NCBI GenBank assembly: GCA_049999805.1
Contig: JBNGIO010006272.1
Coordinates: 374,975-414,473 of the forward strand
Direction: 5' to 3'
DNA from: Folioceros fuciformis
Lineage: Eukaryota
Length of the DNA: 39,499 nt
Under the pieces are notes generated by a model that was not told the origin of the DNA, made no database searches, and saw only the letters and a list, made by a program, of their open reading frames with translations. Shown here piece after piece: positions 2,110-39,499 of this stretch (position 1 is the stretch's first letter; every line of letters starts with the position of its first letter). Both the position numbers and the translations under genes were made by a program.

Positions 2110-4690
2110 GATTCACTACATGCAGCCTTCCCTACAGCTTGTTCAGCAAATGTAGGGCGCTTTGCCTTCGGAGGCAGTTTCCATGATAGACGATTTTCCT
2201 AAAACGGTTTCTTCCTCTTCAAGCTATTGTCAGACGCTTTACCTATTGGCAAGAGGTATGGAATCTGCATTAGACTATTCTCCTCAGCCTCTGCAGCCAC
2301 ACCCTCTAACTACCGAAACACACCTTGTATAAGTGCAACTGCATGGGCCTCAATGCTAGGTTTCCTCTGCACTAAACTTGATACGTTTTCCCAAACAGTT
2401 GCAAAGTTCATTTGGCGGGGGACAGGAGCTCTCGTAATCACGTTTGTTCCAACATCCATAGCTTGTGACAAAGGACGATGTACAATTGTTAGCTCGTTTC
2501 GAACACTACCACAAAGTTCAGCCTCCCTAATAGATAATAGAGGTGCTTGTTTGTACGATTCTTGTGAAGTAGCCACTGATGCATAAATACCCACAAGGGT
2601 TTCTGTGGGCACTACTTCCTGCAAGAACATCATGATCTTCACTTGATGCTTACAAAGAAACCCTGTAGATAAAATCTTGCATGTGCAGCTGCCCCAAGGA
2701 GAGATGGCATTAAACACATGATAAGCCTTGTTCTTCTTTGCATTTTCACTCCTCACGATAACATATGGTTGCCCAGTACAAGGTAGGGATACATCGGACT
2801 ATGGGATTTCCAATGCTTTCTTTAGTGCACTTTGGACAACCAGTTCTTGCTTCTTATTCCTAATGATGCCACTCCTCTTACATTGTCTTTGGTACAAAAA
2901 ATGTTTGTTCACTTCGTTCTTCAGGATATGTAAAAGCTAGTCGAGTCGTCTGCTATGAAGATTCTTCTTTGTGAGGAGACAACGATACTTAAGGTGATGA
3001 TGATAAGCTTCGATCGAAGAGTTGAAGTCTTGACCTGCGTGAGGTATAGTCCTTACTACCTTTATCGACATGTCCATGACATTTCCCTACTGCTGCTAAA
3101 AATTATGCACAAAACTGGCTTCCGAGGCACCATACACCTCGTAAAACTTCTGAAGCTTCATCTGGGCTGATGCTAGATCATTCCTTGAGTCCATGTCCAT
3201 GTACATAACATTTCCCAAGGCCTTCATCATGGCTGCCATGTTACTTGCGGACTTGACTTTCATCAATAGCTGCTGCAACCATGCCCACCGTACATGCCAT
3301 AGACAGAGAAACACAAGAGTTGTGCTGCCAAACACTTGCTGGATTGCTTTTATCTCTACTGCACAGTCATCGACAAGGAAAGCCGTAGGATGCCAATCTA
3401 ACCGTACTGACTGCAATTTCCTTTGCAAAGCCTTTAACCACATGGCCATGTGTTCTGCAATAGATTGATTAGTAATTACCTAGGCCACCAGTATGCCATT
3501 GCGGTGATCATCGAACACCGGCAAAGTGAATAATTAAAACTGAAATAAAGAGACAGTGAGTTAGGAAGCTAGCATCCCACAATCTTGTGTTTGAAATGCA
3601 AAGAATCTAACCTTCCACTTGTATGTGCTGAACGTGGCATCCATTGAAATGATGGATTGATGCCCCCATTAAAGCATGCATTCCTCCTGGAAGCTTGTTT
3701 GAAACCCTAAGGTAAAATGTGTACTCTCCATTGAAGCACCAGGTGGTGGGAAGAAAACAATATCCCTGTGGATGTCAATCCACAGCTTGACACTAACTTC
3801 ATCAATGGTATGGAGTCTCCAACTCCTTGCATCCAACTCAGCCTGCAAGTTGCGTATGTCCTTAGGCAAGAGAAAATCATCTTCATGTAAGACAGCGTTA
3901 GGATCCCGTTGCATCCTAACATAGACATCGTTCTCGTGATCACATAAAATTTGGTAGGGAGTGCTTTTGCACAAAAGTTTGTGCTTCACCCATTCTCTCT
4001 TGCTTGTTGATAAAGAAGGAGCAAGAGCACGTGAGGGAGCTGCATCTGCTACTAACAATTCATGGCAAAAGTCACCAGAGGCATTCACGTGATGCCATTG
4101 ATCGAAACGGATTTGAGCAATATCTTGAAACAACTCCAATTGAGTAATGACAACCACAAACTGACAACCTACTTTCCTGCTCTCCCCACAAGCCACTTTG
4201 CTCCTTCGACTTCTAGGTCCAGACTTTGGCCTGTTAGTCATGTCCACCAAGGGTGCATCACTTTGGAGACAGTTGTCAGATCTAGAACCATAAGCACAAC
4301 AATATCGTATGTATTGTTTTGGTGTGGTTGGTGGCAGGATATTATACTTACGTGCTTTTGCCCTGGATAACGTGCAGCGTTTCACAAGCCTGGTTGGAAA
4401 AATTGGATTTTGCTCCTCACTGTTAAGAAGTCTGAAACCCTTTCCCATAGAATGTAAGCAGTCTTCACCTCCATTACAATTTTACGAACTACATGTATGG
4501 GTGTCCAACCATTCCTAGCCAGTTCTGTTGAAAATATCTGGCAGTGGAGTCTGGATCTCACATGAAAACCTTGCCATCTAAAGAGGTAGCAAAGTGTCCA
4601 ACCATTCCAAGCCAGTTCTATTGAAAATGCCTGGCACCGGAGTCTAGATCTCATACGGAAACCTTGCCATCTAGAAAGGTAGCAAAACAC
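2110..4690 (-). pseudogene. MULE transposase with C-terminal SWIM zinc finger, disrupted
   Basis: Motifs AYILWERVSDF, YCCAYG, SRKVGC, ISMDATF, WHPTAFLVDDC..EIKAIQQVF..VFLCLWHV and SWIM CTCKILSTGFLCKH. In-frame stops (e.g. 3669, 3481) and frameshifts. Probable intron around 3541-3612. Confidence 0.85.
4501..4686. repeat. 93-bp tandem duplication (31 codons) in the transposase 5' region
   Basis: gtgtccaaccattcc...gaggtagcaaa at 4501-4593 is repeated with substitutions at 4594-4686. Confidence 0.85.
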
Positions 4691-14981: not shown

Positions 14982-15112
14982 CAAGGTCTAACCCAGACGG
15001 GCGGATTCCACCATTTCGAGCTTTGCGACACTCAAAATTCGTGTCAGATATCTGCATTTTCATGCGTTTTTGTCAAGAGATGGATAAATGTGGCCTAAAA
15101 GAGTGTTGCGTA
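14982..15112 (+). mobile_element. Orphan left terminus of the same transposon family as 32413-38687
   Basis: caaggtctaacccagacgggcggattcc...aaatgtggcctaaaagagtgttgcgta aligns by eye over about 130 bp with 32413-32550 (cacggtctaacccagacaggcgtattcc...aaatgtggcctaaacgagtgttgagta). Confidence 0.8.
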
Positions 15113-15666
15113 CGACCGTAAACATCAATTTTTTCAAAAGTACAATGGGCCATCCACATCCACAATCCTGAGATTTTGTAGCTTGTCATTCACTTGTAAA
15201 TGACATTGTGATAAGTAGGGATCGTTGGGCGCCTTTCACCAACAACGTGAGTAGGAATGGAAGAGTTTTTGACCTCGTTAAGAAGTGGGCAATACAAGGT
15301 GATGGTAGCTGCCCTAAATCAAATGGGTGCCACTGATAAGGAAGGGGATTTAGAAAGCTTGGCCAAAGATCTAGAGAAGATATTCTCAGCAGCACAAGTG
15401 ACTAACTACATGTTAAAAGATGGTTTCCAAGCTAGTTCGAATCTAGAAGAAGTTTTTGCAATCCCGTTGACTGAATTTTCTCCCAAACCGTCACCTTCAC
15501 AGGGCTTGGACACAGATGTGGTGATTAGTACCAGCAGCAGGGCTTCTCGAACCACCATGGCTTCTACTATAGCTATGGATGAGGAGGAAGTTAATGCTTT
15601 GCTTCTCGAAGTGGTAAGTCTCACGACACATCCTGACTCGAGGCGTAGTTATCTTTTGAGGTGAAG

Positions 15667-16129: not shown

Positions 16130-19100
16130 TTGAGCGAGATTGGCAAACCCTGTGGTAACCCAGAACTAATGGGAGCAAGAGTGTCATATTGACCATCCAG
16201 GCAAAGTGACGTCGCCCGCTGAGACCGAAAGTGGAAGACTCAATGCATCAGCGGAGTTGGAAGGCCTTTCCTGCACAAGACAGATAAGAGAATCTCATGG
16301 TTAACTGAGTCATATGCACCTTTGATATCCATGAGGAGCAGGGAGAGAGCATGTCGTTGACCCCAAGCCCTACGAATATCCTAAACAAGGAGAGCTGCTG
16401 CATCGCTTGTACTCCGACTCGGCTGACCCCCCAAATGACCAAAGGGAAGGAGACTATGATTATTCTCAACCAAGAAGGAGAGACGTGAAGCCATAAAACC
16501 CTCCAGGGCCTTGCCTAAGCAATTAAGAAGAGCAATAGGGCGATATGAACGGGGTAACGAATAATTAGCCCTATTGAGTTTGCGGGGAATGATGGTGAGC
16601 GAGTGACGCCACGTCAAAGGATGATAACCCAAAGTGGAGCAGGCCTGGAAGATATATAAGTAAAATTGTTTGAGGAGGTCCCAACCCCTCTGAAGAAAAC
16701 CTGTAGCCCCTCTGAAGAAAACCTATAGCAATAGTGTCCGGGCCTACTGCTTTCCAGGCTTTCACACCAAAGAGAGCCTGCTGCACCTCGTGCAAAGCAG
16801 GGGTGGGCCATGGGAAATGGGAAGCAGCGGACAGGGGAAGAGGAGGGGTGTCTGAAGAAGAGGGGTAGCAGAACAGAGGACTGCACACTTGGCAGCATGA
16901 GAGTAAGCAAGTGACCTGTCTCCAAAGAAGTGAAGACGAGGAAGCGGGCTTAGTGGAGCGATAAATCTTCCAAATATCCGAGTCGCTAGCCTCCATCAGA
17001 AATTTCTTCCAATGGTCCTTCTTGGCAACTTTCACACTCCGAAAGTACTCATTTCTAACAGACCGAAGCTGCAATATCCCCTGGAGTGTAGGAATGCGCA
17101 TGACCCGACAAGCCCGAGCAAGCCCCTTGTGAAGAGAGGAGAGGGTAAGAGACCACCAAGGTTTAGCACGGAAGTGAGGGTGTACTATGGGGGTAGATGT
17201 GGAGATGGCCTTCTGTAGAGATATTGTGACTTGAGCCACAAGATGATCAATCTGAGCAATAGTTTGAGGAAGCCCAAGTCCCACCAAGTTAGTCGAAACC
17301 TTATAAGCTAAAGTGGAAGAAAATTTGTCCCAGTCAGTAGCTTTGACATTAAGGCGGGAAGAAAGAGGAGGCGGAGGAGGGGAATCTGAACAGGAAGGAA
17401 TAGTAAGGAACAAACCAATAGCTTGGTGGTCAGACCCCACATCTAGATCGGGGAGAATATCACAGAAATCAACCAAGTTGCGAACATCCGTAGAAGAAAG
17501 CGTGAGATCCAAAGTGAAAGTGTTATTTGTAGAAGACACGAAGGTGGGGCAATCTGAGGGGGTGAGAAGAAAGAGGGGAGTAGTGTTAATGAAGAGAGCA
17601 AACTCATCGGCCACCGAGGAAATCACTTCATTAGATGCAGTAGATTCTCACAAGGGGTGATGAAGATTGAAATCTCCAAGAGTAAAATAGTGTTGAGAGA
17701 GGAAGTGGGCATGTGGAGTGAGAATGCGAATGGTGCTATCGGACCCAGGCGGATTGAAAAGGTTAACAAAGTTAATGACTTGGCCTAGACAAGAGACCTG
17801 GACACATTGGATATCAAGATGGTTAAAAAGATCCTAGCGGGGAGAAATACTACTAGAGCAAAGGCTTTTGTTAACATAGGTGAGGACCCGAGGACGGGAG
17901 GGGAGACTAGGAGAGGGAAGGATAGGAGTCCATTGCAGGTGAGAGAGTGTAATGGAAGGGTTAATGACATAAGGCTCTTGAAGGAAAAGAATGTCAAAGG
18001 ACGACAGAAGCATATTCAGAAGAGTAGAGATGACCACACAAGATCGGTGACAGTTAAGTTGAAAGATCTTGAAGGGACTCATGAGGGGCCTGGTCGAGAG
18101 AAAAACTTGGAGTTAGCTTCGAGGCGAGTAGGGCATGAAGATTTAGTGGCCCGATGAGATCCATGGCGGATGCAGGATAGAGAGGTTGCCACCTTACAGT
18201 CCGAAGCTGGATGAGGCCCACCTCAATTCAAGCATCGCTCCGTGCTCCTGTAGAAGGTCTGAGTGTGTCCAAAACATTGACATCGGAAGCATGGAATAGG
18301 GTGGGCATTGGGTACAAAAGGTGTCACCCGTAGCATGCGCCCTTGCAAAGCAAGGCCACATCGAAGAATTGCAAATGCAGAATCATCGTTGGGAAGGGAT
18401 ACCAAAACTAAAGAATGCCGCTTGGTAGAAAGATCCCGGAGGAGCCACCGAGGCTCATCCTCGAAGGTGATGTAATTGTCTTCGAGAACTTCTTCCTAGA
18501 ATTCCTCCATTGATAAGCTGACAGGGACATCATGAACCAGAATTTGGTGACGAATACATGGAGTTGAGACGTCGGAGAAGGATGAAAAAGCCATTGGGCC
18601 CCAAACAGGAGGTGTTGCAATAACTGTAATACCTCTCCACGATAATACCAAGCGACATGCAAAACTTTTGAACTGCTTGAATTTTATGCAAAACTTTTGA
18701 ACTGCTTGAATTTTAACTGGCCCAGCATCTGCTGCCAGGAGAGCCCCGTTAATTTTACCCTTCAAGTCCATGTGATAAATCCTAAGGATAGACCCCATCC
18801 TTAAATCTGACAAACATGCACTCCTCCATAGTTGGGATCGGTCTTGGGGGGAGGACTGCTGCAGTCACTCCTCCATGGTCTTGGGGGGAGGACTGCTGCA
18901 GTCACTCCTCCATAGTTGGGATTGGCCTTGGGGGGAGGATTGCCACCGTGAGAGTTGGGATCGGCCTTGGGGGGAGGACTACCACCGTGAGAGTTGGGAT
19001 CGGCCTTGGGGGGAGGACTGCCACCGTGAGAGTCGACCGCAGCAGCATAAGAGGAAGGGCGAGATACCTTGAACTCAGATTTGACTTCATTAGAAGAGGA

Positions 19101-19282: not shown

Positions 19283-19682
19283 NNNNNNNNNNNNNNNNNN
19301 NNNNNNNNNNNNNNNNNNNNNNNNNNNNNNNNNNNNNNNNNNNNNNNNNNNNNNNNNNNNNNNNNNNNNNNNNNNNNNNNNNNNNNNNNNNNNNNNNNNN
19401 NNNNNNNNNNNNNNNNNNNNNNNNNNNNNNNNNNNNNNNNNNNNNNNNNNNNNNNNNNNNNNNNNNNNNNNNNNNNNNNNNNNNNNNNNNNNNNNNNNNN
19501 NNNNNNNNNNNNNNNNNNNNNNNNNNNNNNNNNNNNNNNNNNNNNNNNNNNNNNNNNNNNNNNNNNNNNNNNNNNNNNNNNNNNNNNNNNNNNNNNNNNN
19601 NNNNNNNNNNNNNNNNNNNNNNNNNNNNNNNNNNNNNNNNNNNNNNNNNNNNNNNNNNNNNNNNNNNNNNNNNNNNNNNNNN
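19283..19682. other. Assembly gap (400 N)
   Basis: Run of N. Confidence 1.
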
Positions 19683-29330: not shown

Positions 29331-32300
29331 ACATGTTTCTCGTTAAGAATCAATCTTCTTGACTATGTATTTCAGTTTTGAAGACTATATATTAGGGTTT
29401 TGATTTAGGCTTCAGGGGTTAGCCCCTAGTGTCCTATCATGGTTTATTTCCGTGTCTAGCGATAAATTAGGCTTTTCATTTTGTTTTTCTAAAAATAAAA
29501 ATGGTTCAATGAATTTGTCATGGTATAAATCTTCTTAACCTATAATGTAGTAGAGCAAAAGTGTAATAGATTAGCGATGTTGATACAACTAATTTATAGT
29601 GTAATAATAAATTAATTGAGTATATTTGTAGACTCTTTTGATCTCTCGTAAAATGATTTAGCTCTTTAATATTAGTATTGTATATTTATTTAGTAAAATA
29701 ATCTTATCTCAAGTAACTTGAATTTATTTAGTGATAATGTGTGCAATTAATATTAATCATATGTCTATCCTTATTTGTTATGAAATAATTTAGCCCTTAT
29801 GGCTTCCATGTCTATTCCTTTTTGGTTAGGTCTTTCTAGCTTTCACATACTTATCTTGTTCTATGGTCATTTTTTTACATTAATAAAGATAAGTAATTTT
29901 TTATCATGATAAAAAAAATTTATCCTCCTTTTTTTATGTTTATTATATAGTAATAAAAAATTCCAATTTCTAATTAGCATTTTAGAAAACGTTTGAAAAT
30001 ACAATTTTCTAACTACTTGACAAGTAGTATGGAATATCGATACAGTCACATGTTTCTGTCATGGAAAGTTTTTTCCAGCCAAATGATGTCTTCATTTTCT
30101 TGACCTTACAAACTTGCCCGCATCGATAGTAGGCCGCCATGTAGGCTTCCCGATGGGGAGAAATATGCAACTCTCATATGATTTTGTTTCTGACACTTTA
30201 ATCAATCATAACTTTATCCTTTTTTATTGGGTTTAGGGTTGCACAAGATGAATATACCAAGTAGCATGATGAGCATGCGGACAAAGTATTTAGGGTTCCC
30301 AGTAAACCTTGCTGCATTTATTTCTCGGCACTCACATATGTGCCTATGAGCCTCGTGTCTTACAAACCAAAGCACATTATACTTAAGGGTAATCGGCTTC
30401 CTCTACATACGATTTATGTCATGAGAATAAAGTTGCCTTCAAAAGTATCTTTGGTAGAAGCCATAAGTATTCGGCTATAAGTCAAGACACATACATTGAA
30501 TCCACATTAGTGCGACATAGCTTATGTAAGAGGCTAGGACATGTGGGAGATTGTCAACTTTGTTGCTGAATATTGTACTAGTCATTATCATGAGCCTTTG
30601 TGCATGTAGTGTAAGAAGTCATAATGGAGAGGTGGCAGAATTTGTCGAGGCACACCAGAGGGGTACTAGAGCTCTATAAGTAAGGTTGCTACGGATATGC
30701 TCTCTTATTGATTGAGAAGTTCAATGTACAATAGTTGGAAGAAGCTATTCTGTGCAAGCCATATCAGGCACGTGAACAATGTCAACTACAACCATGATTA
30801 CTATGATATCCCCTCGAGGGCAATGACATTTAGTTTTGTCCGTTATTGGGCAAGGAGCATTGCGTTTACAAAGCTTTGAATCAATAGGTCCCAAGTTGTC
30901 TTAGGATATTACTAAACACCTCTTCAACTATGAGGGGCACACAGTGGTATCCATTTTTTGATATAGTGAGCAGACAATTAAACAACTCTTGTGCTTAGGG
31001 AAAAAAAGTATGCCCACAAATAGAACCTCTAGTACACCATGGAGTTCTCAGGAACCTTGCGACATATTGTGCATGCAATATTACAATGGTCTTTCCTCCA
31101 CAGGAAATGGAAACATCCAACTATAGTGACCTCAAAAGCTTGCACTCCTCCATACATATTGATCTACTGTTAATGGGTTGAAAGAGGTGATGAAAACAAA
31201 TGCCCCAAGTCCCTAGGGGTTGGTGACTAAACTGCAGCCCAACCCTTTGTTCTTTAGGGTTTGTAACACCATCTTTAAAGTTAGGACTTAGACACATACA
31301 GGAAAATCTAGCAAACACATGCATCAGGGAGTATTGTCCAGGAGGAGGAGGCACATGCATGGCGGGGGGATTGTCAGGGAGGAGGAGGCACATGCATCGC
31401 GGGAAGGTAGCGAGGGAGGAGGAGGAGGAGGCGTTCACGCATAAACCACTCTACGCCGGCAAGGTGTGGAGCAATTTATGCATGCCACACTCCTCCTCCT
31501 TCTCTCTAGTATGCGACCTCTAAAGATGTGGATGCGTAGGAGTTGATTTGGCGACATAAACTAGATGTTACAGGTTTCTCAAAATAGTGTTGCGTGCTAG
31601 GGGTCCTATGTTAAGAGGTATTTTCTTCCCTTTGAGCAAGAGTTGTGTGGATGTGGTGCTCAATATGTTGAACGACTGGATGCTTCTAAGAAGCCCTCAT
31701 GTCATTGTCACAAGTCTCATTCCCATCCTCCTCTACTCCCAAACTCTATTGCCAACCTTCTCGAAGCGTTGTGCACAAATGATGGAAATGATGGCTGGTA
31801 AAGTCTTGACATTTACCCTCTTTAGCAAAAAGGGGTTTGGCATTTCAACCTTCGTGTATGGAAGCTCGTGCAAGTTGAGAGACAATGAACAAGAAGGCAA
31901 AAGAAAGACAATGAACAAGAGGGCAAAAGACAGCTTCACAATTGAACACCAAATAAGCCACAACAACAACTAGGGTGCACTTACAGGTTCATAACAAATT
32001 GGACATAACTGCAGCTGCAACAATTAGGCAACAAGCACAATCTTCAACAAAACCATTAGAGACAAAAATCTTTGGTGCCATAAGGGTAGGCTTAGGCTCT
32101 ATAGCCAACCTTTTCAAAGAGTTGTGTGCAAATGACAGAAATAATGGCAAGCAAAGTCCAGACATTGACCGTCTTCATCAGAAAGGGGTTATGCATTCCA
32201 ACCTCCGTGTCTGACAACTACTGCAAGCCAAGAGACAGTGTAGCAAGAGGGTACAAGACAAGTTTACAAGTAAACACCGAACAAGCCACAACAGTAGCTA

Positions 32301-32938
32301 GGATTACACTTACAAGTTCACAACAAAATCAACGTTATTGAAGCTACAATGATTAGGCAACAAGGCAACCTATACCATCTTCCACAAAACCTCTAGAGAC
32401 TAGCATCTCTAACACGGTCTAACCCAGACAGGCGTATTCCGCCATTTTGGGCTTCGTGAGGTTTTGGTGCTGAAAACTCGTGTCGTATATTTGCATTTTT
32501 TGTGTTCTTGCCAGGAGAACCCGAAATGTGGCCTAAACGAGTGTTGAGTATAAACTTAATTATGAATTGTTTCCAAAGTACTAGCAAATTTGCGGGTGTC
32601 ATTGCAATCAAATACATGACAAAACCTTGTAATCTGGCGGGTATCACGTAATTCACGTGTTATCGGATTCCATGCAAAGTCATAGGTGCCTGAGCGATAC
32701 CTCATATCAGTTGACCCTATTCCTCAAAATTATTACCTATCAATATCTATTTGCATTTTTCAGAAATGGTGGCAAAACAGAACACCATTGACCCGGCGCG
32801 GAACAAGCGAGAGTGCACCAATAGACCGGCACACTCCCGCTTGGGGCACATGTATGTTAAGTCGAAAACGACCCTTGACTTGCGCTAAATACAATAATTA
32901 TCATACCACTTTGTACTTACCACTTTTATCTAAACGTC

Positions 32939-34147
32939 TTACAAGTTTTCATTATTTTCAGGTGGCAGTGTATCCTGGTCGCGATTGAGGACGTAGAGGT
33001 TTTTGCGAATTAGAATCCTCGTTCGGGAGGGTAGCTGTTTTTGGCATGTCAAGTCAAATCCATATGCTAGAATAAAAGTGTCTTCAATGAATAATGTATC
33101 TTTGTGCTTCCAAAGTCTTCTGCTTGATCTGCGTCTACGATCGCCATGTAACCCTCTTGGCGAAGCTTCATGTGGTAAAATCATCTCTTCTTGGTAACAA
33201 CCCTCAAAGGCATCTGAATATTTGGTAACCCACCAGTGCACTTTGACATATGGTTTCTCACATGTAATATCTGCCTCTAAGACTTTGGCAATCCAAAACG
33301 GCCTATTGTCTTCGTGGGCCTCGCAAGGGACTGCAATCATATGCCCTTTTTCTATTTCGGTTATATCCTCGTTCAAACTGTCACGGTCGTCATTGAGGTC
33401 CGTCTCCCTACAGTATGCCCCCACATACATGTTTCTTCTGGGAATCTCGCGGATGCATGGATTGTGAACAACCATTTCATCTGGTACAGTAACGGGTGTG
33501 TTCAATATTTCTATTGCCTCCTGATTATACCACCGCCCTTTCGAATCAAGTTCTCTATCTACAGCGGAGTTTATAGAATGCACGATAGCCTCTTGCTCTG
33601 CCCAAATCCCATCCCACCATAAGTTCTCGCCTAGTCCTAAGTGTTGTCGTAATCGCACCTTCAGTTTTGATCTGATTTGTGCCAAATGATATTCAACGAC
33701 ATTCTCCGGAAATGTCCTTCGTTTTTTGCTCCTGGATTGTAGATGTAAAAATGGAGCAGCTTTGATATCTGTGTTCGGAATATGCTTCAGAAACTCGATA
33801 CCCTCATCTGGCAACCAAAAATTGTCTGTACAATATTGCTTCCCGCGCATCACTATTATAAAGCCCTGTTCACCACAGCTCTCGCTTGTGATCTTGAACT
33901 AGTGTTGGAACAAAATATTGTGCAGTGGGTGAATAGCAGATACATTCTTATAACCGGCTTTTCCGTAAGGTACAGGCCACACAAATCGCCGAAAGTCTGG
34001 CACCTTCTTCACTTCATGCACAGCTGGCGTAGGTGTATAAGAACTCTGCATAACAGCGATGAGTGCAAGTAAAGTCAATGCTTCTTTCCTTCCCAGAGCC
34101 GTCGAAAACCGAGAGAACATCTGGTCCACCTAGTCATGCGTGTACCC
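32939..34147 (-). pseudogene. C-terminal half of a DUF7869-like putative DDE transposase, with a possible SH3-barrel (Tudor/PWWP/BAH-like) tail
   Basis: One frame with two TAG stops: GYTHD*VDQMFSRFS (cf. GHTHEDIDQxFS), TLLALIAVMQSSY, VPDFRRFV, then GHMIAVPCEAHEDNRPFWIAKV...VKVHWW. The 5' part is missing beyond 34147. Confidence 0.7.
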
Positions 34148-34165
34148 TAAACCCTAAACCCTAAA
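34145..34165 (+). repeat. Interstitial telomeric repeat (CCCTAAA)3
   Basis: Three exact Arabidopsis-type telomere units. Confidence 0.95.
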
Positions 34166-34313
34166 CTTTGGTCACAACCCCAACAGGGATGGACAACAAC
34201 CTGCACCACCCGCTGGTGAAGAGGCTACTCCCATTGCCTAGACTGCCGGAGGAAGAAAGGATAACTCAGGTGGGAACGAGAGAGCGTCCAATTCAAAAGC
34301 AAGCGAAGGAGCT

Positions 34314-34775
34314 ATGAACCACATTCCGATGACTGTGAATCACAGAGGCAGTACAGGAGGTAGTAAGAATTACAACATTTCGAATGCCTACAACTTTGTA
34401 GAGCGATTGAAACTGAAGAAGTTAGAAGGCACTCTGGCCAAAAGATTCAACACTGACAAGGAATGGTTTTCGATAGCTGAAGATGAGCCTGATGACTTGA
34501 ACTTGTCGTGGATTCCTCTTATTGCTCTGTGGGTGAATGGGTTTCAAGGCTTGGCCGAGGACGAAGCAGGAAGGGCAGGATGGATTCTTTGTGCGTTTCT
34601 GGACGGGGAAGATGACGAAACTCACTTGAATTTCATCCTCACCCGACACCCACCAAGCCACATTACGGATGACTACGACAATCACAGTTTAGTGGTTGTG
34701 AATGTTGCGAAAGCCATACCTCGTCGATGTGAACCACTGTGGATGAAAAACGCGCTAAGAGATTGTCTTTTTTGA
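34314..34775 (+). CDS. Transposon-internal ORF of unknown function (153 aa; probably 5'-truncated)
   Basis: Open frame with globular-looking composition. The same frame extends upstream through one TAG to about 34178, next to the telomeric junction. No family recognised. Confidence 0.45.
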   Translation: MNHIPMTVNHRGSTGGSKNYNISNAYNFVERLKLKKLEGTLAKRFNTDKEWFSIAEDEPDDLNLSWIPLIALWVNGFQGLAEDEAGRAGWILCAFLDGEDDETHLNFILTRHPPSHITDDYDNHSLVVVNVAKAIPRRCEPLWMKNALRDCLF

Positions 34776-35039
34776 AGGATGTAAGTGGTCTTATTAACCC
34801 TAAGTTAAAAATGTCATAACCGAGAATTATCCTAAACCCTAGCTTTTGTGGTTGGTTTTTCGCTAACTAGGGTGGAGAACAGTTTTGTCGACAGTATTGC
34901 AATGTGTAGGCGACGCGGTGCTGAACAATAGGGCTCTTGTCGCGCGGCTTGCGGGGGGGAGCGGCAGCGGAAGTCGGTGCAAGTAGAATTCGGAGTCCTT
35001 CATACTCGTGCAGTGGGATTCGTGGAAGACAAGCAGGAG

Positions 35040-38000
35040 ATGCCTCATATGCAACCAGAGATTTCGGAAGAAGAGGCACCCTACATTCCAGAACACAGCG
35101 AAGAGGAGGAAGTCGAGGAAGTGGGGGAGATGGCTCAATACTCCTCAGCGGAAGACAGTCTAAATGAAGCTCTGGAGACGCCCCGCAATTCCTACGAGGG
35201 TGTTGCATCAGAGGAGTCTCCTGTGGAGATCACTTTACCGCGGAAGAGAGTGACCCAGGGGCGCCGGTCCACCAGCGCACCAGGGCAGCGGAAAAGGAAA
35301 GCATTAGCATCTCTTGCGAAACAGCGGAAGATGACATCTGGTGAGGATGTTGTGAGCAAGCTTGTAATTTTGCTTTGGATTTGTTGCTGGCTTCCTGGAT
35401 TACGTTGATGAAACACTGACCGCTGACCCCGATGATACTCCTCCTATATGTCTCCACAGCCACATCTCCGCAGCCGAAACGGCGAAAAGCTGCAGGCACT
35501 GCAAGAAGAGGGCAGGCAGCAAAGTAGAAAAGACGGAAGGGCGGTGCAGTGTAGCAGGTGCAACCAGAGCCAACCCGAGCAGTGGAAACAGACATAGAGA
35601 GGTTGGAGAGGTTAGCGCAAGATGAGGACTACCTGAATGGGATCAGGAAGAAGGCTCATGCCAAGAGGATAAGGTCCACAACATTTGATCTACATGTGGA
35701 TATTTTGCATCCTGCCTCCTTTATCACCTCTGACGCATAGAAAAGGCAGGTAGACAAAGCTTGGATGAAAAGCTTAGTGAGGTAGATGCAAGCTGGCTCT
35801 GTTAAGGAAGGGATCTTGCCCCTCCTGTGTATGATTGATCCTAAACAAGCAGCGAGCAAGGAAGAGGTTTCCTTGGACAGGATCACGGCGCAGCAGTACC
35901 ACATGGGAGTGTTAGGGGGCAACCATTGTTTTGCAGCCATGCAGAAACTACATCAGATGTTCCCTGCAGAAGATAAATATAAATGGATGGAAGGGCATGT
36001 GTATGCTGGGTTGATAGAGGAAGAGATGAGGATTCTCGTTGTCGACCACAATGTCTATGCAGACAAGCGGAAAAGGATGGGGTTTATTGAGCAGGTCAGA
36101 TACATCCATGACGAGCTTGACATTTTCTTTAGGCATCATTCAGGAGAAGAGAAGCCACCAGTCAAGTGGACGTTCGACCTGTACAGGTTGCTAGGGATGA
36201 CTGACGAAGGTGGAGATCCCCATGACACAGAATGGGTGCAGAAGATGGTGGACAGGCAGACTTTGCCATATCGGGTAGCCAGATGCACAAGTGTTCTGTG
36301 GGACAATGTGGATAGGATCTTTAGAATGTGGGAACAGGGTGAGCTCCCAGAGCAAAAGAGCATGGTAACAGGCGGGACAACGAAGAGGGCAAAGGCGAAA
36401 AGGAAGACAGGAGATTTTGCCCTGCAAAGTTCTGTTACCCAGGTGACCAAAGACAGTAGCAGGAGGCCAGGAGCTATGCAGAGAAAGCCATGAAGAGCAT
36501 TTCAAGGCGTCCCAACAGGTGTAAAGGGAGAGGAGATGCTCATAGCGGTGACGCAGAAGGTCATCTAGGGGAAGCTTCATTTACGAGACATGGACACTGA
36601 AGTGGGGAAGAAGAAGAAGATACACCTCATCCAACATGCCTTCCGACTGGCAATGAAGTGCGACACATTTGAGGAGGCCAAAGAGATGTACCCGAAGCAC
36701 ACAGAAGACGGTCATCTCCTGAAATTCCAAATTGCCTTTGCCAAAGTGGTAAGTTTTTCCGTTCTTTTCTCTTGTTACTAATCCGGTTCATTAAGCTAGA
36801 GTGCGTCGGTAGATTGGCGCACTCGAGATGGGTGAGGCTCCTGTGCACTGGTCTGCCGGCAGACTTTGGCTCGAGCCTTTGGGCCCAAGTCCACCGGTAG
36901 ACCGGCGCACTAGGGTCGGCTCGGGTCTCGAGTGTGCCGGTCTACCCGCGCACAGGGCCTGCACTGAGTCGAGTGCGCCGGTCTACCGGCGCACTAGGCA
37001 TGCACTGAGTCCAGTGTGCTGGTCTATCTGTGCACTGGGCTGCAGTTAGTCCAGTGCGCTGGTCTACCTACGCACTGGAGCTCCAGCGGTCTTGAGTGCG
37101 CTGGTCTACCAGCGCACTTATGTATGTTCATGCTACAGTAGGGTTTATCGCTAGCCAGACTAACGTGCACCATTCTGGTTGCAGAAACCCTCAGAGATAG
37201 CGGACTTGGAGTCCCTCCCGAAGCCTTTCCAGGATTTTTCTATTCGGCGAAAAACTGGAAAAGGATGGAAGAGGAGAAATAGAAGTTGGCGGCAGCGGAT
37301 ATGGATGCAGGGCTGTCGGATTTCCAAGTTCCAGCGAGTAACTCGAAGGTCAAATACCAGGTGATTCGAAGGAATGTTTTGGAAATGAAGGCATTCCTTG
37401 TCAAATGACCCTACACGCTGGTATTTGCAGATCTGCCTCGAGGCTTACAACGACATGAATATGACAGGCAGATGACTGTGGTAGATTTGGATGAAATGCT
37501 CCGAGGGTTTAGTGAATGCACCTCGAGCAATATTTATAGGGTTATTCTAATGCACAGAGTGGACATGATTTCGGAAGCAAGGGAGGCTCTGCGGCCATGG
37601 TGCAAGAAGGGGGGCTTCCATACACTAGTATGGGAGAAGACGAACATACCCTCAAACGCAGGAGCAGTGGAAACAGTGGAGTATGTCACTATTGAAACTG
37701 CAGCTCACACAGAGGCCCAAGAATCGAAGGCTGCACTGTTTGCGAATCATGGATTTCTGCTCCCAAGGGTTATAAGGCATGGAGCGGTGGTGAAGAAGCA
37801 CCTGTTTCATTCAGTAGATGGGCATGTCGTCTCGCCTCACCAAAAACCATTGCTGATAAACATGTTTTCGTGTGAGGGGGACTGAGTGGTTGATGCATGC
37901 GCAGGCTCCAGGTCTCTTCTCCAAAGTGCAGTGAAGGGTGGAAGGCACGCGGTTGCGATTGATGTCGATGTGAGGTGCACATCATATATCATGTAGCGGA

Positions 38001-38374
38001 TTATCGGGCTAGGGTCTTTGCCTAACGCAGATGAGGAGATAACTACAGAGTCCTTTATGCGAGGCCCATCAAAGTTTTGGGCGAAGGAAGTGTGCGGTGA
38101 TGGGAGTGTGGATCGCAAGCTGATGGTGTTCAGTATGTTGGGAAGGAAAGGAGAGGTCATACATGAGATTGATGATAGGCCTGCGGAAGACCTTTACGCC
38201 ATCACTGTCTAGGATGAGAATTGCACTCTACCGCCTCAAACTACAAAGGACCCCAACTTCTCGGTGCTTCGGGTGGGTGCCGACGACTTTGCTGATACTG
38301 ATGCACAACGCTTGAATGATTTAGATGTGGTTGTGGATTCCGAATCCAACCAGGACGACCCTGTTTTTGTTTAG
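35040..38374 (+). pseudogene. ParB/Srx-like domain + beta-class N6A/N4C DNA methyltransferase fusion gene, 2 introns, disrupted
   Basis: Acidic/basic N-terminus, then intron 35341-35459. ParB-like block RQVDKAWMKSL...G..PLL...GVLGGNHCFAA (GGNH at 35915-35926). Intron 36749-37184 (GTAAG...GACTAAC...GCAG). MTase motif IV region TLVFADLPRG (DLPR at 37430-37441), LVWEK, SPHQKP (HQKP 37838-37849) and motif I region FSCEGD*VVDACAGSRSLLQSAVKGGRHAVAIDVD. About 11 internal stops and a frameshift near 37250. Confidence 0.8.
36799..37118. repeat. Array of eight 24-bp palindromes (consensus AGTGCGCCGG-TCTA-CCGGCGCACT) in intron 2 of the cargo gene
   Basis: Copies start at about 36800, 36842, 36888, 36931, 36972, 37013, 37053 and 37095. 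Period is 40-46 bp. Confidence 0.88.
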
Positions 38375-39499
38375 GGTTAAAACTTGACTTAATTTGAAAT
38401 TAGTTTGAATGTAAACTTTAAGTACTTTTAAACATTTGTGCACCGGTTGACCGACGCACTATATGTTTAGGAATGCAAAAAATCAAGTTTTGCAAAGAAG
38501 ACTCAAACTGTTTTCTTCAGTAATTTTGGTTTTAGTGACCTTTGCAGCAACAAACATATTCGAATACATGTCAGTGGCGTCATTGTTTGTGAAATCAGAT
38601 GATTAGTAGATAAGGAGCGCGGATCAGGACAAATGTGAAATGCGCAAAACGGGCTTCGTGGAATACACCCGTTTGAGTTAGACCATGATCTCTACTGCTA
38701 CAAGTACAGTCTCCCAACACCATCTTCAACAAAACCACCATAGTTGAATATCTTTGATGCTGAAAGGGCGGTGCCTTTGACCTTCCTACACAAACACACC
38801 AGTATGGCACATGCATCCCTAAACCAGGCGATCCCTAGTACGAGAGGTAGCCTCGAATTCTGTTGCACACTCACCTATATTTGCCCTTAGCTTTTGCAGA
38901 CTGCCTTCCAACGTCTCCACCAAGCTTAGACTATTGTGCATAGCATGCACCGCGTTTACTAGCCTATCCATGACGTTGCCTTCGCTGGTGCCTCCTTGTG
39001 CTGCACGTCGGCCTTATGTACATCAGGATGCACCTCACTATGGATGCGTAGGCGTTTCATCCTCCTGCTCTCCAGACAAGCAAAGCTCAGAGTAAATTAG
39101 TTCCTGACGCCGCTTGCACACCCTTGACGGTGGCGGCATGTTGGACCCTAAACTGCAATATGCACCACTGCCTCGATGTGTAACCTACCCAGCACCATTG
39201 CTTGGAGTGCCCAAGTGTGAACGAAAAAAACTTTCGGAACCCCCATTTTGAGCGACGGAATGAGCAGGTTGTGATTTTTTTTGTGAAGGGACAGGCGAAT
39301 CAGTTTAGTAGGTAAATAAGACCAGGGTGTTTATGCCCAAAGTCCCTCTTGGGCTTCGGGTTTGGGGTGTACTGGAGACCGGGACAAGGTGGTGGAATGA
39401 GCGAGTGCCTCCTTGGCCCTCGGGTTGCCTGTAGGTAGGTGAGTGGGGTATGTCCTTGGCCTTTGGTGGTCCGAGGCCCCTTAGGTCTCTATATATGCT

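Follow-up and report, generated by a model that had tools for sequence, protein, structure and literature searches.

A decayed terminal-inverted-repeat transposon with a predicted ParB-like/methyltransferase gene in a streptophyte-like genome

The 39,499-nt stretch of contig JBNGIO010006272.1 analysed here (the window) comes from a genome that looks streptophyte-like by its telomere-type repeat and by named relatives in Chara, a fern and Ginkgo, and contains, at 32413-38687, a single insertion of a DNA transposon with terminal inverted repeats (TIRs) and an 8-bp target-site duplication (TSD). We consider it probable that this insertion represents an internally deleted, mutated copy of a DUF7869 transposon family that carries an accessory gene for a ParB-methyltransferase protein, along with a mechanism for marking its own DNA. 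Alignments and a structure model predict that the accessory protein comprises an N-terminal ParB/sulfiredoxin (Srx)-fold domain, a helical linker and a C-terminal beta-class methyltransferase domain of the N6-adenine/N4-cytosine type. In the mechanism we propose, the ParB-like domain would recognise a family-specific 24-nt palindrome, which forms an array in an intron and is found once near each end of the element. Binding to this palindrome would hold the methyltransferase domain on the DNA of the element itself, which would thereby be self-marking; such a mark could act on host silencing, or it could link transposition with replication in the way that Dam methylation links them in IS10 and Tn5. 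Palindrome binding, methylation and the effect on silencing are proposals.

The insertion and its family

The original prediction described matched 28-bp TIRs and an 8-bp TSD. Both are present, but both are imperfect, with 23 of 28 positions identical between the 5' TIR (32413-32440) and the reverse complement of the 3' TIR (38660-38687) and seven of eight between the flanking octamers, ATCTCTAA and ATCTCTAC. The insertion site is a low-copy tandem repeat with a unit of ~330 bp (31744-32412 and 38696-38900; repeat families D2, D6 and D7). A neighbouring, paralogous unit of this repeat, used as an empty-site control, holds a single octamer (ATCTTTGG) and aligns colinearly, across the junction, with the left flank, one octamer and the right flank of the element. 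Both limits of the insertion are thereby fixed to the base, and the duplication is 8 bp long. The joint 32411->38707 was also recovered in two public DNA runs of this organism, in one contig of each; these contigs are ~84% alike to the window and therefore represent a paralogous empty unit, not an allele. When the 28-mer of the 5' TIR was sought with at most three mismatches, it was found at two places in the window (32413 and 14982), while 100 shuffles gave none.

The repetition of the element was assessed with public DNA contigs of the same organism (runs X1 and X2, from one sample), placed on the window at a likeness of at least 80%; their summed depth does not equal copy number and is used only relative to the flanks. 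By this measure, the element is ~15-40 times deeper than its surroundings. In X1, summed depth amounts to 12-38 in the left flank (30500-32299) and to about 15 in the right flank (38900-39199), compared with 196-554 for the greater part of the element (32300-38599) and 144 for its final bin (38600-38899). The steps are located in the bins that hold the two inverted ends, with the rise falling in 32300-32599, and X2 behaves alike. Within the element, repetition is similar for the accessory gene (ParB part, 367-434; methyltransferase part, 352-402) and for the transposase (372-554), and single sites in all three parts are covered by 9-24 distinct contigs. The element is a member of a multi-copy family bounded at the TIRs. 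It combines TIRs, a TSD with an empty site and repetition that ends at the TIRs, as a cut-and-paste (class II TIR) transposon does; the multiplicity, the boundaries and the empty paralogous site thus confirm the earlier reading of this segment as a TIR- and TSD-bounded DNA transposon.

The commonest differences among the X1 copies are C>T (238 places) and G>A (251 places), as against 171-173 for the other transitions, an excess that would be expected from the deamination of methylated cytosines. A further run of the same sample, X3, shows C>T at 543 and G>A at 353 places over 30500-39499, together with T-rich loose ends. It resembles a bisulfite or enzymatic-conversion library, and 5-methylcytosine (5mC) data for this organism may already exist.

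Another 5' end belonging to this transposon family lies on the plus strand at 14982-15143, with three mismatches in its TIR; it aligns with the first 170 bp of the element at 73.5% identity. Neither a matching 3' end nor any of the element's genes was found for it within the window. Downstream of it follow an open reading frame (ORF) resembling those of long interspersed nuclear elements (16571-17647, minus strand) and then a gap of Ns (19283-19682). At the other side of the element, summed depth rises to 1100-1600 over 39200-39499, far beyond that of the element itself, where another very abundant repeat begins.

Structure and decay of the accessory gene

The accessory gene has three exons, possibly four (Table 1), and would encode a product of ~926 aa, or of ~1120 aa if an upstream ORF is counted as an exon. 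Exons 1 and 2 join in frame and are flanked by canonical splice signals, in line with the spliced ParB-like/methyltransferase gene that was originally proposed. In another copy (~85% alike), a single contig of 837 nt extends from the upstream ORF across exon 1 into exon 2.

The copy in the window contains 11 premature stops and one frameshift in this gene. The frame of exon 3 changes at ~37235, where other copies have one extra base; once the frame is restored, the exon reads LPKPFQDF.YSAKNWK, matching a stretch that is conserved in homologues (in P0004, for example, LPSTFQEHITKAKAWK). Three of the stops are confined to this copy, and at these places other contigs read sense codons in 91-100% of the depth: at 37406, T>C turns TGA into CGA (X1 depth 163.8 of 163.8, in nine of nine contigs); at 37885, A>G turns TGA into TGG (405.6 of 424.1) and yields the W of the family's GDW motif; and at 38211, A>G turns TAG into TGG (559.7 of 559.7). 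Judged by its sequence, the copy in the window is dead and non-autonomous.

The ORF at 34242-34775 may be an upstream exon of the same gene. Nine X1 contigs (depth 155 of 264) have an extra T after 34767 that would extend its frame as far as the GTAAGT at 34781, and position 34932 is preceded by an AG of compatible phase. A Pfam scan of this ORF gave no match. An assignment to Myosin_head, suggested by Atlas fragments at 0.92, was rejected, as it relied on 155-158 shared features, too few to trust. A 329-nt contig of run X4 (guessed to be RNA, with two contigs placed) spans the end of the ORF and the putative intron; it is unspliced over 34691-34945, with a likeness of ~91%, and then diverges.

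Palindromic repeats

With up to seven mismatches, the 24-nt palindrome AGTGCGCCGGTCTACCGGCGCACT occurs 11 times in the 39.5 kb of the window, and all 11 occurrences fall within the element, while shuffled sequences contain none or one. Eight copies form the array in intron 2 and two lie singly near the ends; the eleventh, a weaker match, is located in exon 1. As seen from contig joints, the number of array copies differs between genomic copies of the element. The presence of one palindrome in both the intron of the gene and the two subterminal regions argues that the gene belongs to the element, and we regard the palindrome as a candidate site for the ParB-like domain.

Comparable arrangements were seen outside the window. 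Among 12 metagenome loci with ParB-methyltransferase genes that were examined, three have arrays of a palindrome of their own upstream of the gene, at a distance of at most ~1.5 kb, with units of 115 bp (L021:1-400), 106 bp (L014:1-320) and 42 bp (L002:300-390). A repeated palindrome was not seen in the other nine, whose contigs are so short that they are uninformative in this respect.

The ParB-like half

Over its full length, the N-terminal half of the accessory protein is homologous to the corresponding halves of proteins from Chara and Ginkgo that have the same methyltransferase at their C-terminal end (BLASTP E of 1e-25 for GBG86584.1, 5e-14 for the second Chara unit and 2e-17 for Ginkgo Gb_37443). 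An AlphaFold2 (AF2) model of this half was built from an alignment of six rows. The first ten Foldseek ranks obtained with it are all ParB, Noc or PadC (best E 4.2e-3; probability 0.97-0.99). Similarly, a VIA comparison with Caulobacter ParB (7bm8_A) gave a Z of 8.8 and a root-mean-square deviation of 2.6 Å over 98 residues. In total, 13 chains reached a Z of at least 8, those listed all being ParB, Noc or pNOB8 ParB, whereas Srx chains scored 5-5.9 and unrelated ones at most 3.9. On the strength of this model, we accept a ParB/Srx fold for the N-terminal domain, as an assignment of fold that makes no claim to Pfam membership.

ParB proteins are characterised by a GxxR motif and Srx proteins by GG.HR. 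The corresponding Gly-rich motif reads GGGH.REA or GGGH.GEA in three of the four aligned homologues and GGCNSVEA in Ginkgo P0010; in the window, it has become GGNHCFAA, with the Arg lost. The sole related Pfam signal among the homologues is DUF6551, at E 0.019 in Ginkgo.

The methyltransferase half

An exhaustive HMMER search of 1.84 billion representatives retrieved 26 relatives of the methyltransferase part at E<=1e-3 (best E 3.4e-22), and all ten homologues tested exceed the cut-off of Pfam PF01555 (N6_N4_Mtase), with 27.3-65.7 bits. At the level of sequence, the homology of this part to clear PF01555 proteins is firm. Ten of the 26 relatives carry a source name and five of them a species, namely Chara braunii (GBG86584.1, GBG66685.1 and GBG75370.1), Ginkgo (Gb_37443) and Adiantum nelumboides (MCO5611298.1); the others have generic labels only ('hypothetical protein', 'DNA modification methylase') or derive from eukaryote-like contigs. 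Word-based searches with P0001 (among longer proteins) and P0002 (among proteins of near length) returned no homologue. One of the named relatives, GBG86584.1 of Chara braunii (P0014, 1825 aa), contains two complete ParB-like/methyltransferase units in tandem, parted by long Ala/Pro and Glu-rich runs, and resembles adjacent copies fused by annotation.

When a family profile that includes the window copy was compared with PDB sequences, it matched DpnA best (1.8e-12), followed by MboIIA, CcrM and RsrI; enzymes acting on adenine N6 range from 1.8e-12 to 1.9e-9, those acting on cytosine N4 reach 2.8e-8 and PvuII 6.6e-3. Twelve of the 13 chains matched are methyltransferases, and the remaining one is a spurious Fab chain. 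In P0001, DLPRG (residues 8-12) is followed by QKP (145-147) and D.C.GS (162-167), such that motif IV precedes motif I, which is the permuted order of the beta class. Across the 13 aligned sequences, motif IV reads D[IF]PYG in seven; the Ginkgo sequence has DIPHG, a further one DIPST, and the window copy shares DLPRG with P0004-P0006. An Asp at motif IV usually indicates adenine-N6 specificity, and together with the ranking of the solved relatives it would favour adenine-N6 over cytosine-N4.

Relatives in other sequence collections differ in extent. By tblastn, 11 of 68 metagenome loci with a methyltransferase relative also match the ParB-like half. Among viral contigs, five of 70 pattern matches were confirmed, all of them restricted to the C-terminal methyltransferase (query residues 606-760); a viral relative of the ParB-methyltransferase architecture was not seen among the viral contigs searched.

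The transposase remnant

On the minus strand, residues 1-53 of P0003 match Pfam DUF7869 (E 3.7e-9; 36.9 bits, cut-off 26), which supports the earlier identification of a transposase remnant. The match is confined to positions 107-159 of the 192-position profile, and the upstream part of the transposase gene is therefore missing (5' truncation). Eight X1 contigs diverge from the window beyond 34143, and on the minus strand their frame continues with a GHTHD motif ahead of the window's VDQMFS. This copy thus appears to have suffered an internal deletion, and longer copies of the family probably exist. The telomere-like repeat at the loose end may be filler at the deletion junction; a shorter telomere-like stretch, CCTAAACCCTAG, is found at 34831-34848.

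The remaining 319 C-terminal residues of P0003 are related to unnamed eukaryotic ESM Atlas clusters, in one of which DUF7869 is assigned to 12% of the members. A PDB sequence search with P0003 was without match, a word-based search among longer proteins found no homologue and no paper in the literature searched mentions DUF7869, PF25273 or IPR057191. The designation as transposase is putative and takes into account position, multiplicity and motif; of a DDE/DDD core, this copy could hold only what lies in the C-terminal remnant with the DUF7869 match. Three known superfamilies were considered, and none was assigned. A hAT element was suggested by hAT-like termini and the 8-bp TSD, but P0003 has no match to a hAT Pfam domain. 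Sola was considered for its Ectocarpus precedent, but the TSD has 8 bp here and reportedly 4 bp in Sola, as Bao and colleagues are said to have described in 2009. KDZ/Zisupton elements produce a TSD of 8 bp and were considered for that length, but the remnant has no KDZ Pfam match.

Table 1. Features of the element and its borders in the window
Feature	Positions	Strand	Remarks
Left target-site duplication, 8 bp	32405-32412		ATCTCTAA
5' terminal inverted repeat, 28 bp	32413-32440	+	CACGGTCTAACCCAGACAGGCGTATTCC
Single palindrome copy	32812-32835		400 bp inside the 5' end; 4 mismatches to AGTGCGCCGGTCTACCGGCGCACT
Putative transposase remnant P0003	32939-34129	-	397 codons, one internal stop, N-terminal part missing
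Plant-type telomere-like repeat (CCCTAAA)x3	34145-34165		Adjoins the loose end at 34143, where the transposase gene breaks off
ORF, function unassigned	34242-34775	+	Possibly first coding exon of the ParB-methyltransferase gene
Exon 1	35040-35340	+	Acidic and basic low-complexity N-terminus; donor CTG/GTGAGG
Exon 2	35460-36748	+	ParB/Srx-like domain (~35675-36076) and helical middle region, both predicted; 6 premature stops; acceptor CACAG/CC
Intron 2	36749-37184	+	GTAAGT...TTGCAG
Palindrome array, 8 copies	36800-37118		Period ~41 bp, inside intron 2; candidate binding sites
Exon 3	37185-38374	+	Predicted beta-class amino-methyltransferase domain; 5 premature stops, one frameshift near 37235
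Methyltransferase motifs	~37430; ~37840-37910	+	Motif IV DLPRG (~37430); QKP and motif I DACAGS (~37840-37910); by sequence alignment
Single palindrome copy	38437-38460		~250 bp inside the 3' end; 4 mismatches
3' terminal inverted repeat, 28 bp	38660-38687	-	Reverse complement compared with the 5' end
Right target-site duplication, 8 bp	38688-38695		ATCTCTAC

Elsewhere in the window, the ORF list shows two ORFs of 162 and 270 aa on the minus strand at 2310-4481, one of which has a Cys/His pattern (C..C...CKH) that recalls the SWIM finger of MULE transposases.

Alternative explanations

Several observations weigh against a self-marking transposon family with a ParB-methyltransferase gene of its own. 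With regard to the link between gene and element, the family end at 14982 has just the terminal 170 bp in common with the element and none of its genes, the transposase remnant gave no tblastn match in the 68 metagenome loci that contain a methyltransferase relative (on short contigs), and no long contig or second full copy with both genes in one TIR pair was found among contigs of a few hundred bases. In addition, the palindrome array has an X1 depth of 84 (36800-37099), compared with ~380 elsewhere in the element, and may thus be absent from many copies or represent a nested insertion. With regard to the ParB-like half, Pfam ParBc matches neither the window protein (E<=1) nor ten homologues (E<=0.1), the family profile finds no ParB chain among PDB sequences at E<=10 and the AF2 model is mediocre, with a mean predicted local distance difference test score (pLDDT) of 59.6 and values of 70-82 in its core. 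Finally, the methyltransferase part of this decayed copy itself reaches 16 bits against PF01555 and fails the gathering score of 26.7, and the replacement of the motif IV aromatic residue by Arg makes canonical catalysis doubtful, so that methylation may not occur. Of the profile matches that the original prediction proposed to check, the DUF7869 match and the methyltransferase homology were found; the PF01555 score of this copy stays under the cut-off and ParBc is not detected.

The most serious alternative, although one we consider unlikely overall, is a variant of the preferred explanation and compatible with its structural part. It holds that the accessory protein is a catalytically dead pseudo-methyltransferase that acts solely as a sequence-specific, ParB-like DNA-binding, bridging or spreading factor or as an anti-silencing decoy, producing neither N6-methyladenine (6mA) nor N4-methylcytosine (4mC). 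The activity is doubtful because DLPR replaces the catalytic D/S-P-P-Y motif in the closest clade: DLPRG stands in the window copy as well as in P0004-P0006, the three relatives closest to it, in place of the canonical (D/S)PP(Y/F/W) tetrapeptide, whose aromatic residue, in solved structures of the class, stacks against the flipped base. The DLPR clade may thus have lost canonical catalysis and retained only the binding of DNA and S-adenosylmethionine (SAM). The methyltransferase domains of DIRS1 are likewise thought to be inactive (PMC4738411). On the other hand, motif I (D.C.GSG) and QKP are conserved in the DLPR clade, fitting retained SAM binding, and DLPR is kept across proteins that are 29-35% identical; it is therefore under selection and could serve a changed chemistry. 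As for the original suggestion that the element encodes its own 6mA/4mC writer, the beta-class homology holds, but the copy present is dead, and with DLPR in the clade nearest to it any activity is doubtful.

We judge it improbable that the ParB-methyltransferase gene was captured, in the manner of Pack-type elements, or nested in one sub-lineage and thus lies between these TIRs incidentally. The points on linkage given above would fit such an origin, namely the lack of a second copy with both genes among the contigs, the relative at 14982 with its terminal 170 bp and the 68 metagenome loci without a transposase match beside their methyltransferase genes. However, the gene region equals the transposase region both in depth and in the number of contig variants, the intron palindrome also occurs in the two subterminal regions and nowhere else in the 39.5 kb, the 837-nt contig runs through the upstream ORF and exon 1 into exon 2 in another copy and the same arrangement has been published for an algal transposon (PMC12477816). 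Hence, similar depth and a common palindrome argue, indirectly, for the original claim that the cargo moved with the element.

Least probable of all is that the Chara, Ginkgo and fern proteins are host genes and that the window holds a pseudogenised fragment acquired by a transposon through transduplication. The named relatives do bear the annotation of normal proteins (hypothetical or 'DNA methylase N-4/N-6 domain-containing'), but the gene in the window has retained both introns and full length and has many diverged copies. In Chara, at least three clusters differ by more than half of their residues (<50% identity), one of them the 1825-aa tandem double unit with its long low-complexity runs, a pattern that would be typical of gene models called on repeats.

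The preferred explanation of the element as a mutated member of a DUF7869 family with a ParB-methyltransferase accessory gene could be extended further. In a bolder version, to which we assign a rather small chance, transposons of streptophytes (charophytes, ferns and Ginkgo) carry a 'parS-ParB-methyltransferase' module, in which a ParB-fold domain is loaded onto palindrome arrays specific to the element and the fused amino-methyltransferase writes 6mA or 4mC on it, and the DLPR clade is a derived one with altered or lost chemistry. If this were true, transposons would write part of the disputed non-5mC DNA methylation of plants, and this part would be restricted to them.

Comparison with known systems

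The original prediction did not recognise the architecture of this element as described, but a precedent has been published. Sola1-1_Ec32 of Ectocarpus, an element of 21.5 kb, carries a gene for a 1104-aa ParB-like/DNA methyltransferase protein opposite its transposase, and similar proteins are reported for green and red algal transposons; the role proposed for these algal proteins is that of binding to their own transposon and modifying it (PMC12477816). Both there and here, a ParB-like and a methyltransferase domain are united in one protein that is encoded within a DNA transposon, opposite the transposase; the proteins are of similar size (~1100 aa, as against ~926 or ~1120 aa here), and the idea of self-binding and self-modification is the same. 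Compared by description, the two differ in their host (brown alga versus streptophyte-like genome), in their length (21.5 kb versus a probably deleted 6.3 kb) and in the 8-bp TSD, the transposase known only as DUF7869 and the motif IV DLPR of the element in the window.

Related cargo has also been described for red algae, in Plavaka/Zisupton elements with two relevant proteins, PAG2 (N6-adenine methylase plus SET) and PAG3 (ParB plus 2OG oxygenase), and the same preprint, on Bostrychia, reports inverted-repeat arrays beside the ParB-fused PAG3 of red algal Plavaka elements (10.1101/2025.02.11.637652). These giant DNA transposons thus likewise encode ParB-fused DNA-modifying accessory proteins, next to arrays like those in the window and at L021, L014 and L002. 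However, their ParB domain is combined with an oxygenase and their methylase with SET, whereas ParB and methylase are predicted to share one polypeptide here.

An association with ParB is also known for amino-methyltransferases that eukaryotes obtained from prokaryotes or phages. The 'chlorophyte-type Dam' family of chlorophytes and chytrids has an N-terminal ParB-type helix-turn-helix, and the haptophyte clade 6 enzymes derive from phage ParB-terminase loci (PMC4738411). In contrast to the beta-class PF01555 domain of the present family, these clades comprise M.EcoKI/TaqI-like Dam enzymes and an FHA fusion; in the accessible part of the source, no transposon is named as their carrier.

A cut-and-paste transposon with a DNA-modification enzyme as cargo has its parallel in fungi, where KDZ/Plavaka transposons of basidiomycetes reportedly carry TET/JBP genes, as Iyer and colleagues are said to have described in 2014. 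Their enzymes differ from ours in being oxygenases acting on 5mC without a ParB domain, in a fungal host.

Marchantia DN4MT1a/b and bdelloid N4CMT resemble the methyltransferase of the window in being prokaryote-type amino-methyltransferases of the beta class in eukaryotes. However, DN4MT1 has a TSPPY motif and is a host gene expressed in sperm, with no ParB domain mentioned in the accessible part of the report (10.1101/2021.02.12.428880), while the family described here combines D-x-P-[Y/H/R] with a ParB-like N-terminus and lies in a transposon context, and TSPPY or SPPY was not encountered in it. No Marchantia protein is present among the ten of 26 methyltransferase relatives that are named, and a link to DN4MT1, which the original prediction mentioned, is unlikely.

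Collectively, these comparisons identify the element as a member of a kind already noted in algae, whose particular features are the 8-bp TSD, the DUF7869 transposase, the shared palindrome and the DLPR motif. Since the present copy is dead, any biology must reside in other copies of the family, for which the 24-nt palindrome provides a concrete candidate that makes the notion of a transposon binding and marking its own DNA directly testable. For surveys of DNA methylation, it may be relevant that 6mA/4mC signals in plants, as well as gene models annotated as 'DNA methylase N-4/N-6', could originate from transposons. A transposon architecture of this type in streptophytes was absent among the literature matches listed. 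Previously, transposon-borne ParB-methyltransferases had received no more than brief mentions, in brown, green and red algae; a streptophyte-like member and its relatives in Chara, a fern and Ginkgo now extend their range towards land plants.

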